Assembly (NCBI GenBank): GCA_043228905.1
Contig: JBHGNT010000002.1
Span: forward strand, 25,854,001 to 25,918,000
Direction of reading: 5' to 3'
Source: Azolla caroliniana
Lineage: Eukaryota; Plantae; Polypodiophyta
DNA: 64,000 nucleotides
Below the pieces are notes generated by a model. The model was not told where the DNA came from. It worked only from the letters and a program-made list of their open reading frames with translations, and searched no databases. A program made the position numbers and the translations under genes. Shown here piece by piece: positions 49,546-52,500 of the stretch. Within the stretch, counting starts at the first letter, position 1; each line of letters opens with the position of its first letter.

Positions 49546-52500
49546 CTAATTGGCACGACAGAGAGCATCTCCAAATCCAGTGCAACTTGATGCAAGTTTA
49601 TCGTTTTGCGATTCGTGCATAAACCTTTGCACGGGTCCAAGCAACATCCTCTTCACTGTGGGCCATGTCGATTGATACTGCAACGTTACACGACACGAGG
49701 GGTTAAGAGTTAGGGCTAGGGTTCTTCAAGTGAGGTGAGAAATGCAAAAAGAAATATGACTTGTCAAAATTAAAGGATTAGAGCCATTAAGCCATAAGAC
49801 ATTAGATACAAGCTATAAAGTAGGTTGGTTAAAACATTCGAGGGTTATTACTTCGAAGGACGAGAATCTGCAATCAGCGGACAAGACATCGGTCGTGATG
49901 TAGTCGGACTCGGAGCCATCGAGGATGACTTCGGCGGCCCGGCTGCGTTTCTTGCTCTTCGCGGCATGCAACTTCTCATACGTGCTTGTGGTCTCTTGAT
50001 AGGTTTGCCCTGTTTCACACACAAACACAACATATGTAGATAAAATAATAGACTTGATAGGTTCGTCCTGTTTCACACATAAACACAAGACACTACATAT
50101 GTAGATAACACAATAGATTTGATATGTTTGTCCTGGTTTTCACACATGGAATTTCAAACCAATGAACCTACTGAATGATTTAAGTGCAGAGGGTTTAGGG
50201 GGGTTTTACAGTTCCAAGGGTTTTTGGGATTAGGATCATATGGGTCTAGGGTTTCTAAGGTTGAGAGGTGTTAGGGTTTGCAGGATTAACGCTCTGAGGT
50301 TTAGGGTTAAAATTTAAACCATCATACCATGGCCTTTGAAATCAAATGTGAGAATGGTAAGATCATATTTACCTAGAAGCCCGTGAACTTTTGGTGAGGC
50401 CCTCAACTGAGAAACTTGGAGATTGATCTGCAAGAGGTGAGTTTATTATTAATTTCTTCCATTCGTTTTTATAAGTATTTAACCTTCACACGATTTGCCT
50501 AGAATAAATGTAGAGATAAGACATGCAATGATGGGTTTGGTGGTAGGGATAGAGAACATGGAATAAAAGAAAAAAAAAAATCTCTTTGCCATACATAGTT
50601 TTTGAAAGATCCTCGCCGTCCAAATGTTGCTTTAATAATCTTGGCCACAACGTCTAATTGGCCTTCTGCATAGATTCTTGCAGACAAGGCCCCCTTTGTT
50701 ATGGTGAGGCCACTTCTAGTGTTGATTGTGTTGTCCACACCTTTCACCTCCACCTACAAAATGATGAATTTTGGCATTCAAATTTCATGTGTATAAGGTA
50801 TTCATAAAACCCCATTGTTTTCTGTATATATGTGTTATGGAATGTTTATTGTATATCCTGTATACTCGGTTATTGTGTGTGTCTCTGTATGTGTACTTAG
50901 GTATGTATGTAGATATATATACAGTATGTGGGTAGGTTCATATACGTGTATGTGTGGATGTGGTTATGTCGGAAGGCATGTATGGATGGATGTATGTAAG
51001 TAGTAATGTAAATATAGAGGTATATATGCATGTAATTTAGGAACCTATGCATGTATTATGCTCACATTGTCTACAATGAGCTTCCATCCCTCCTCATCAT
51101 GGCTTTGAGCTTGTATCAATATCTTTTGTCCTTTATATAGAACCCCCAATGTGGAGATGAACTATCATACAAAACAAACAAAAAAATGTAGCTAATCGTT
51201 AGTTGCCTTGAATAGAAGACTTCTAGTTTTAGCTTGAGAAGAAAAAATATGGCCAAAGATACTTACAGTGGATTTCCTTAGCTTTCCATGGAAGACATGC
51301 ATGTTGATGTGGATATCTTTGTCGGAGATGACACAGTAATTTCGGCCATCTTTTCCGTGGAAATCGAAACGCTCTCCATGTTTGCCGATGAAATGAGGGT
51401 CACCGCTAACACTGCCCCGCGACGGAGGAGGAGGAGGGGCTGAGGGAACATTTTGCACTACTCCTTCTCCATTGGGAGGGGGAGTGCGGGGCAATTTCTT
51501 CTTAGGTGGAGGAGGTGGTGAGGAAGAAGAGAGTGGAGGAGATGGAGATGGAGATGGAGATGGTGGGGGTGGGAATGGTGAAGGTATATTTTGAACAATT
51601 CCTTGACCATTGGGTGGAGGAGCTTGACGGGGTTTCTTGGGGGGTGAAGAAGAAGATCTGTTAGGAGGTGTATTTGTTGAGCTGGGTGCAGGTGATGGAG
51701 AAGGTGGTGTAGGAGAAGGAACGCTTTGCACCACACCCGAGCCGGTAGGAGGGGTACGAGATGGTTTAGTCTTCGGAGGAGGTGGTGAAGCAGATGTGGT
51801 GGGAGTAGGAGCCGGTGGTGAAGATGGGGGGGGACTTTGGGAATAGCTCGGAGGGGGATTAGAGGTGCTCTTTGCAGGAGGGGATTGAGTATTTGATGGA
51901 GGTTGAGAAATTAAAGGTGGTGAACCAGCAGTAGTTGAAGGTTGATTAGCTGGTGTTGCTGCAGCAGTTGGTGGCGGGCAATCGTCTGGTTTCCATGGAC
52001 ATATTGGGGCCGGTGGCAGGACATTCAAACATGTGGCTATACACAACATAACAATGTTTTTCGTCATTCACTGGAAGGGCCCAAAGTTAGCTTTTCTCTC
52101 TAGTGACTTGTTTTGGTTAGTTTTTGATCTATTGTGTGACAAGTAAGAAGAGCTACTCTCTAGTGTTTTTCTCTGTACCATTATCTATCATCTATGTGCT
52201 CTCAAGGAGAGACATTTACTTTTGGGCAGAAAGGATCGCGTTTACCAAGATTGAGAAAAATTACTTACGTTGATTGGATTGTTGTATGCTTTTATCAACC
52301 TGCACAATTGAGCTTTCATGTTAGCTAACAATGTGGAGTAGTGGTAAAATAAGACCCAGAAGAGGGGGAAAAACTTACCGGACAAGTTATGTTGCAAGCG
52401 CCGTTGCATAGGGTATAATTGCCAGATAACTTTTGCATGTAAGGAATAGAATGATTAGGCTAAGTTACATTCTAATCTCAAGCCAAATATGTTCACAAAA

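Follow-up and report, generated by a model that had tools for sequence, protein, structure and literature searches.

The locus and its predicted protein

The window analysed here, a stretch of 64,000 nt of Azolla caroliniana DNA, harbours on its minus strand a predicted gene for a multidomain protein, the features of which are listed in Table 1. The gene model was built from GT-AG signals and homology only, and thus it could be wrong or the gene could be unexpressed, in which case the motif described below would have no role in the organism. We consider this very improbable, since the 15 exons with canonical GT-AG borders give one open frame of 838 residues, which is collinear with the independently annotated proteins of five genera (Adiantum, Ceratopteris, Riccia, Sphagnum and Physcomitrium), and since the head exon that was searched for is single-copy in the genome. 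The identity to fern and moss homologues is 41-56% in the head and 40-63% in the C-terminal domain.

Two candidates were rejected when the model was built. A 59-base exon at 55769-55711 broke the frame, and the match to Adiantum was restored when it was skipped. Extension of the last ORF to the stop at 49813 was replaced by a donor at 49852 and an extra exon matching the tail of the orthologues. Two runs under the same species label were also inspected. One of them yielded four short contigs in the interval 53474-53710, the second yielded none. In one of these contigs 53681 is linked to 53547 and not to the predicted acceptor at 53533; as it adjoins a microsatellite and the run possibly represents DNA, it was counted neither for nor against the model.

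Judging from its sequence, the 838-residue protein is likely to be secreted. The signal peptide was called from sequence and hydropathy, which peaks at 2.87 over 11 residues at the N-terminus, and no 19-residue membrane-like segment is present in the whole protein.

Table 1. Predicted gene, protein segments and residues of interest in the window.
Feature	Position	Strand	Basis or remark
Predicted gene, 15 exons, 838 aa	49546..56215	-	14 introns, all GT-AG; single open frame
Exon 1 with start codon; aa 1-22, likely signal peptide	56149..56215	-	Sequence, hydropathy
Exons 2-7, predicted right-handed beta-helix head, aa 23-355, Chlam_PMP repeats	52533..54396	-	Pfam, Atlas, moss orthologue model
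Exons 8, 9 and start of 10, Cys-rich neck, aa 356-402	51978..52429	-	Cys pattern common to orthologues
Pro/Ser/Thr-rich stalk, aa 403-589	51417..51977	-	SP3-5 runs, three imperfect repeats
Strand 1 (aa 590-593) predicted for the vWD-fold domain	51405..51416	-	Orthologue model strand 290-293; without Cys
Gly594-Asp595-Pro596-His597	51393..51404	-	Bond predicted to be cut lies between bases 51399 and 51398
His609, equivalent to FCGBP Gln4094	51357..51359	-	Alignment to 8qci_B
Asn627, invariant in the family	51303..51305	-	125/125 aligned rows
DPH / root-cap domain, aa 594-795	49852..51404	-	Predicted vWD-fold beta-sandwich and PF06830 motifs
Exons of the DPH domain: end of exon 10; exons 11-14	51161-51066, 50753-50595, 50427-50373, 50009-49852	-	
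Exon 15, 43-residue tail, two Cys	49546..49677	-	Common to fern and bryophyte orthologues

Chlam_PMP repeats were recognized by Pfam in one exon of the window (E 5.9e-4) and in the orthologues (E about 1e-8), and an Atlas search with the head led to beta-helix clusters. The head of the moss orthologue was modelled as a right-handed parallel beta-helix (pLDDT mostly 80-95), a fold common to pectate lyase-like enzymes; its best match, pectate lyase A, is a weak one (Foldseek E 1.6e-5, 13% identity, rmsd 7 A). A head with this predicted structure may bind polysaccharide. The stalk comprises about 188 residues, of which 37% are Pro, 20% Ser and 9% Thr, and in comparison with chimeric extensins and other HRGPs it contains three SP3-5 runs and one Tyr. 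It is likely hydroxyproline-glycosylated, as would be expected from what is generally known of plant Hyp-rich proteins.

Position and conservation of the GDPH motif

On the minus strand, GDPH is encoded by bases 51404-51393, its surroundings being PPPPPSRGSVSGDPHFIG; it belongs to an open frame of 291 residues which corresponds to one exon of the larger gene. It is the single GDPH in the six frames of the 64,000-nt window. At least one GDPH was present in 33 of 200 Markov-shuffled windows (mean 0.18) and, when the predicted protein was shuffled 20,000 times, in 0.5% of the cases. A single GDPH is unsurprising by itself, and it is its conservation together with its position that makes it non-random.

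The first-pass annotation of this DNA had proposed that the protein cuts itself at this motif and becomes attached to the wall, and this proposal hinged on conservation of GDPH among orthologues. Such conservation was indeed found: GDPHF is kept in 9/9 aligned homologues and is common to every fern, moss and liverwort orthologue found. GDPH had also been placed directly after the Pro-rich stalk, exactly at the boundary to the C-terminal domain. The stalk does precede the motif and the C-terminal domain does start there, but according to the orthologue model the four residues before Gly are already strand 1 of the domain, so that GDPH would be the turn between strands 1 and 2 and not a linker between stalk and domain. 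The remark that angiosperm root-cap proteins usually read DPR at this place agrees with our counts (of 33 angiosperm proteins retrieved, 31 with DPR, one with DPH and one with no motif match).

The root-cap/DPH family

The window protein is predicted to follow the arrangement that characterizes the DPH proteins: a signal peptide and, further on, a beta-sandwich of about 250 residues with DPH or DPR at its start. Its orthologues pass the Pfam Root_cap cut-off of 27 bits (28.2-33 bits). A single exon of the window contains half of the Root_cap motif (13.3 bits), and Pfam gave no match for the GDPH-bearing exon alone.

A profile made from eight domains matched 2,674 clusters at E <= 0.001, and our counts refer to the best 150 of these. 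The motif is xDPH in 134, DPR in six and another DPx in four of the best 150, three are without Asp-Pro and three are fragments that begin past the site; thus, Asp-Pro is kept in 144 of the 147 matches that cover the site, a count to be read in the light of the about 15 bits which the motif adds to the profile score, favouring motif-bearing matches in the search. With the motif masked, 70 non-seed matches still passed the list cut-off; 67 of them cover the site, and Asp-Pro is kept in 64. The Asp and Pro columns rank within the nine best conserved (116/118 non-seed rows). With five further orthologues, the best 150 of the 2,674 clusters form a set of 155 homologues, in which Gly precedes DPH in 61 of 139 family motifs. 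Since some motif counts by regular expression missed or misplaced a few sites, HMM-anchored counts were preferred.

The motif lies at most 310 residues from the C-terminus in 131/140 matches, and the domains preceding it are diverse: LRR, PAN, C-type lectin, multicopper oxidase, subtilase, PA14, Ole e 1 and Ig/cadherin-like domains were found. It is located within the first 60 residues in 19 of 148 proteins (P0008-P0155), about nine of which look like a signal peptide followed by a few residues. Two homologues, P0116 and P0134, begin at strand 2 right behind a signal-like peptide and are like a ready-cut C-terminal piece. The genome itself contains seven matches including the window: besides the gene described here, there is a single-exon GDPH paralogue (L002), in which a signal-like peptide and a few residues but no passenger precede the motif, and there are five YDPR root-cap genes (L003-L007).

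DPR and DPH forms differ at two additional positions. Cys is present just before the motif in 35/37 DPR forms versus 16/132 DPH forms, and the His of the HGxLGQ motif in 2/37 versus 123/132. As the DPR forms mostly belong to one clade, the Cys difference does not represent independent co-variation. In a tree of 54 domains (window, L002 and 52 hand-picked from P0001-P0200), the domain of the window groups with three fern proteins (100/98) and then with bryophytes (100/98), followed by two Closterium forms and one further close relative (97/83). This fern-bryophyte-Closterium clade is separated from the DPR clade. Head, stalk and domain all recur in one Closterium protein. Word-based searches, in which a missing match is weak evidence of absence, revealed no seed-plant orthologue.

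Predicted fold of the C-terminal domain

Folds were modelled on orthologues and not on the spliced protein of the window. The AlphaFold2 model of the Ceratopteris orthologue, the domain of which is 56% identical to that of the window, was based on 127 sequences and has a pLDDT of mostly 88-97 in residues 291-490. In this model, the strands 290-293 and 297-299 flank Gly-Asp-Pro. The best 40 Foldseek rows were all VWF, mucin, FCGBP, RGMB or Cypridina luciferase, with a best E of 2.1e-7. A VIA-align comparison with 48,161 chains gave 19 rows with Z 10.9-15.4 (rmsd 2.2-3.7 A, 128-160 residues), followed by row 20 with Z 4.9. Sixteen of the 19 were VWF, mucins, FCGBP or RGMB, and the rest were Cypridina luciferase, vitellogenin and an insect pigment protein; the top row had Z 15.4 with rmsd 2.6 A over 154 residues. 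Pro296 of the model is the first aligned residue and corresponds to residue 4081 of FCGBP (8qci_B), a chain which starts with Pro-His, and to residue 169 of RGMB.

At the sequence level, the family profile recognizes the FCGBP GDPH hairpins with E 1.3e-19 summed over repeats. In the PDB sequence searches, the matches to FCGBP and MUC5B were confined to the first hairpin, and weak rows with Sm-proteins and haemagglutinin (E >= 0.08) were discarded as noise. Pfam VWD (PF00094) was found in 14/155 homologues at E <= 1e-3, 11 of them above the cut-off, and the paralogue L002 reached 20.6 of the 22.9 bits needed; eight land-plant orthologues (P0001-P0007, P0010) gave no match to Pfam VWD.

There is thus strong model-based support for the view that the C-terminal root-cap domain adopts a von Willebrand D (vWD) fold with GDPH at the same spot as in the cleaved animal domains. 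The comparison with vWD domains, which had been suggested as a check on the self-cleavage proposal, therefore turned out in its favour, the Pro of the orthologue model being in register with known cleavage sites.

Proposed self-cleavage between Asp595 and Pro596

We propose that the protein likely cuts itself between Asp595 and Pro596, and, judging from conservation and the orthologue models, we assign a probability of roughly 0.6 to this. While passing through the secretory pathway, the domain would fold so that GDPH comes to lie in the turn joining strands 1 and 2. Then the side chain of Asp595 would attack its own carbonyl, assisted by His597 and possibly by His609, and the chain would be broken with an Asp anhydride left behind. 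The products would be a head-plus-stalk piece of 60 kDa (before glycosylation) and a 27-kDa piece opening with Pro-His-Phe. These would be joined by strand 1 only and could separate: there is no Cys from residue 403 to 616 and thus none in strand 1, so that no disulfide would tether the chain across the predicted scissile bond and nothing covalent would hold the two pieces.

PMC10880436 describes the corresponding reaction in FCGBP, where Asp4080 is the cleavage Asp and GDPH occupies the same turn. The Gly before Asp-Pro forms a cis peptide there, exchange of Asp to Ala or Asn and of His to Asn blocks cleavage, and Gln4094 assists. The window protein possesses Gly, Asp and His as well as a polar residue at +14. 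Moreover, a vWD fold does not need the motif, as MUC2 and MUC5AC each carry GDPH in only one of four D assemblies (PMC10880436), yet Asp-Pro is retained, which argues for selection on the bond. The low pH that the first-pass annotation had invoked for cleavage is not a general requirement, since FCGBP and MUC5AC are cut early and at near-neutral pH, as PMC10880436 and PMC8267560 report.

The alternative, which we consider less likely, is that Asp-Pro-His is a structural turn or a binding motif of an intact vWD-fold domain, and that the protein remains one chain which binds wall glycans or oligomerises. In line with this, recombinant MUC2 D4 stays intact despite a well-placed GDPH (PMC10880436). 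Further, according to PMC10796529, the algal protein AnIBP (54.5 kDa), which has a DPH domain, was assigned to a 55-kDa spot on a reducing SDS 2D gel, where identification by MS failed; if this assignment is right, AnIBP is uncut. The DPR clade retains Asp-Pro, yet it has mostly lost the His of HGxLGQ and is without the His whose change to Asn stops FCGBP cleavage. From these sequences, Asp-Pro may be partly kept for the shape of the turn. Stand-alone domains also occur. On the other hand, uncut vWD domains are generally without the motif, while here Asp and Pro belong to the best-conserved columns and the window protein has the complete set of residues named above. No biochemical or proteomic report on cleavage of any plant member was found, and a peptide-motif search of the literature, with supplements outside its reach, returned no reported Pro neo-N-terminus.

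If the protein cuts itself as we propose, two fates of the anhydride can be envisaged. Most likely it would react with water, resulting in a matured two-chain protein with a sheddable head. The second fate, capture of the Asp595 anhydride by Lys or by a hydroxyl on either a polysaccharide of the wall or a glycoprotein glycan, would covalently fix the head on its stalk, and we regard it as less likely. Its appeal comes from the heavy chains of inter-alpha-inhibitor (ITIH), which are linked in this way to chondroitin sulfate. Among the Atlas clusters outside PF06830, rank 1 is a chordate cluster with ITI_HC_C in 13% of its members (score 0.91, 174 features) and rank 3 is an ITI_HC_C cluster (0.89). 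Weak ITI_HC_C (PF06668) matches at E <= 1e-3 were obtained for 11/155 homologues, the best having E 3.4e-5, and for two fern orthologues E was 0.0013 and 0.019; none of these matches reaches the Pfam cut-off (best 24 of 27 bits). The domain is C-terminal as in the ITIH heavy chains, many unrelated extracellular domains stand in front of it, and strand 1 has no disulfide tether. The PDB sequence searches returned no ITIH chain and the fold searches no ITIH C-terminal structure, and therefore ITIH and mucin vWD domains were not ranked by structure.

Coupling of ITH3 to C6 of GalNAc is described in PMC8267560, and in FCGBP, according to the same text, the anhydride is hydrolysed and no attached partner was found when coupling was sought. 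About nine homologues and L002 seem to have no passenger to be anchored, and thus the domain has a role that is independent of a passenger; among the outcomes, we therefore put hydrolysis ahead of coupling. To our knowledge there is no plant acceptor, and plants are without chondroitin sulfate and bikunin. In our analysis, covalent attachment is the weakest step of the first-pass interpretation, which as a whole, self-cutting with wall attachment, is partly supported.

It is tempting to speculate that the root-cap/DPH domain serves as a portable module for clip-and-link and thereby as the plant equivalent of the inter-alpha-inhibitor propeptide, which would cut itself at Asp-Pro and esterify the preceding domain to wall or mucilage glycans with no enzyme, although we doubt that this will prove correct. 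The passengers would be a beta-helix on a glycosylated stalk here, and lectins, LRRs, oxidases and an ice-binding domain elsewhere. The DPR forms of seed-plant root caps would then be a derived, disulfide-tethered version.

The proposed self-cleavage is of interest for several reasons. A root-cap family that was unexplained so far would gain a first testable mechanism. If the protein is cleaved, plants would join the animals and bacteria in which GDPH autoproteolysis has mainly been studied. If it is also coupled, the covalent links between protein and glycan in plant walls, the origin of which is only partly understood, could arise without an enzyme, and possibly a tool for protein ligation would come into view.

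Comparison with known systems

The domain was named 'DPH domain' in print by Prochazkova et al. 2024 (PMC10796529) and is also discussed in bioRxiv 10.1101/2024.01.29.577848 (Raymond 2024). Both describe, in their accessible text, a beta-sandwich with no assigned function, compared with small heat-shock proteins and lectins, and neither accessible text contains 'von Willebrand' or cleavage at the motif. According to bioRxiv 10.1101/2024.01.29.577848, some 2,000 plant proteins belong to PF06830, for which no mechanism is known. Like these proteins, the window protein has a signal peptide, a variable N-terminal part, a C-terminal beta-sandwich starting with DPH or DPR and a root-cap motif at the end. 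However, the land-plant forms in the accessible parts of the two papers are, with few exceptions, DPR and have a short N-terminal part, whereas the window protein is a land-plant DPH form with a head and stalk of 590 residues. A literature link between PF06830 and vWD, ITIH or self-cleavage was not found in the open literature (subscription papers, database annotations and supplements lie outside it), and further GDPH sites were sought in human proteins only, as stated in the accessible sections of PMC10880436. If the PF06830 domain is placed among the vWD/ITIH folds as the models predict, its motif coincides with a known cleavage site, which makes the function of this large family directly testable.

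With the cleaved vWD domains of FCGBP, MUC2, MUC5AC, MUC4 and RGMB, the window protein has in common the predicted fold, the location of GDPH between strands 1 and 2, and the register of Pro. It differs from them in that it has no strand-1 disulfide, in that the identity is only 10-15%, and in the additional root-cap motifs. It is also without C8, TIL and E domains, which were absent behind the vWD domain when orthologues were searched with Pfam; only the 43-residue tail follows there.

The GDPH domain of diatoms was reportedly defined in Lachnit 2019. The diatom adhesive trail proteins that carry it are likewise secreted and Pro/Thr/Ser-rich, their annotation overlaps with vWD, and they belong to an adhesive matrix (PMC7335047, PMC8027222, bioRxiv 10.1101/2023.03.06.531300). 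The available parts of these sources describe the domain as diatom-specific and do not mention cleavage. The likeness to the window protein is one of description.

The ITIH heavy chains, the nearest Atlas family outside PF06830, also have a C-terminal DPH-initiated domain behind a large passenger. Their mature chain has VIT and vWA domains, which the window protein lacks, its head being a predicted Chlam_PMP beta-helix, and the sequence matches lie below the Pfam cut-off. The C-terminal domains of ITIH have vWD topology according to PMC10880436. The chemistry itself is known from animals and bacteria, and what would be new here is a plant beta-helix-and-stalk protein carrying a predicted vWD/ITIH-like Asp-Pro module.

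Paralogues and homologues of the domain

The Azolla caroliniana genome harbours both DPH and DPR types of the C-terminal domain. The former include, besides the window gene, the paralogue L002, in which a signal-like peptide is followed by about 14 residues, the GDPH motif and then the domain itself. Past the strand with the invariant Asn, the L002 domain carries an insert of about 120 residues rich in Lys, Glu and His, and the Pfam VWD model matches it weakly (E 6e-4). The DPR type is represented by the root-cap genes L003-L007, which have YDPR. Among the homologous proteins found by the profile search, P0116, P0134 and P0079 are devoid of Asp-Pro: in P0116 and P0134 a signal-like peptide leads at once into strand 2, strand 1 being absent, while P0079 contains the domain in repeated form.

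Features of the window and of the main gene product

Features of the window and related loci of the same genome
Feature	Position	Strand	Remark
FAD-binding protein exons	about 13700-15030	minus	Pfam FAD_binding_4, E 8.6e-16
Long dinucleotide and short-unit microsatellites	24400-25000, 53605-53675, 62900-63450
GC-richer stretches and open frames	33700-37000, 39815-40663		by eye
Duplicated stretch, >100 bases	46180-46400		downstream of main gene; by eye
R-x-L-L-like motif	49640-49677	minus	ahead of the two C-terminal Cys; every land-plant orthologue has it
Cys617, Cys789	51333-51335 (Cys617), exon 14 (Cys789)	minus	columns covary in family
Three imperfect stalk repeats	51417-51790	minus	basic patch, then PP-x-G-x-G-x-V-Q-x-x-PS
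RRL motif	54380-54396	minus	after signal peptide; also in Adiantum and Ceratopteris
Threefold tandem repeat, unit about 78 bases	54570-54825		intron 1 of main gene; by eye
L002, single-exon paralogue	L002:451-2082 (G000:C2)		GDPH and domain; about 0.46 Mb from window
L003-L006, four near-identical canonical YDPR root-cap genes	G000:C9, 6.97-7.24 Mb		clustered
L007, one further YDPR root-cap gene	G000:C7		different contig from L003-L006

Outside the main gene, the FAD_binding_4 exons presumably encode, judging by their motifs, a MurB-like protein of the plastid peptidoglycan pathway. The microsatellites give rise to spurious open frames. By eye, the GC-richer stretches and the open frames look like retrotransposon remains; a Pfam scan of two frames from these regions gave no match.

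Within the domain, the columns of Cys617 and Cys789 switch together: both residues are Cys in 78 of the 127 rows of the family alignment, and 31 rows have Asn and Phe instead. This pattern is consistent with an intradomain disulfide between Cys617 and Cys789. Since comparable stalk repeats are present in the orthologues of Adiantum, Ceratopteris and Sphagnum, these repeats may serve as processing or binding sites rather than as filler. At the two ends of the protein, the RRL and R-x-L-L-like motifs are similar to sites processed by subtilases.
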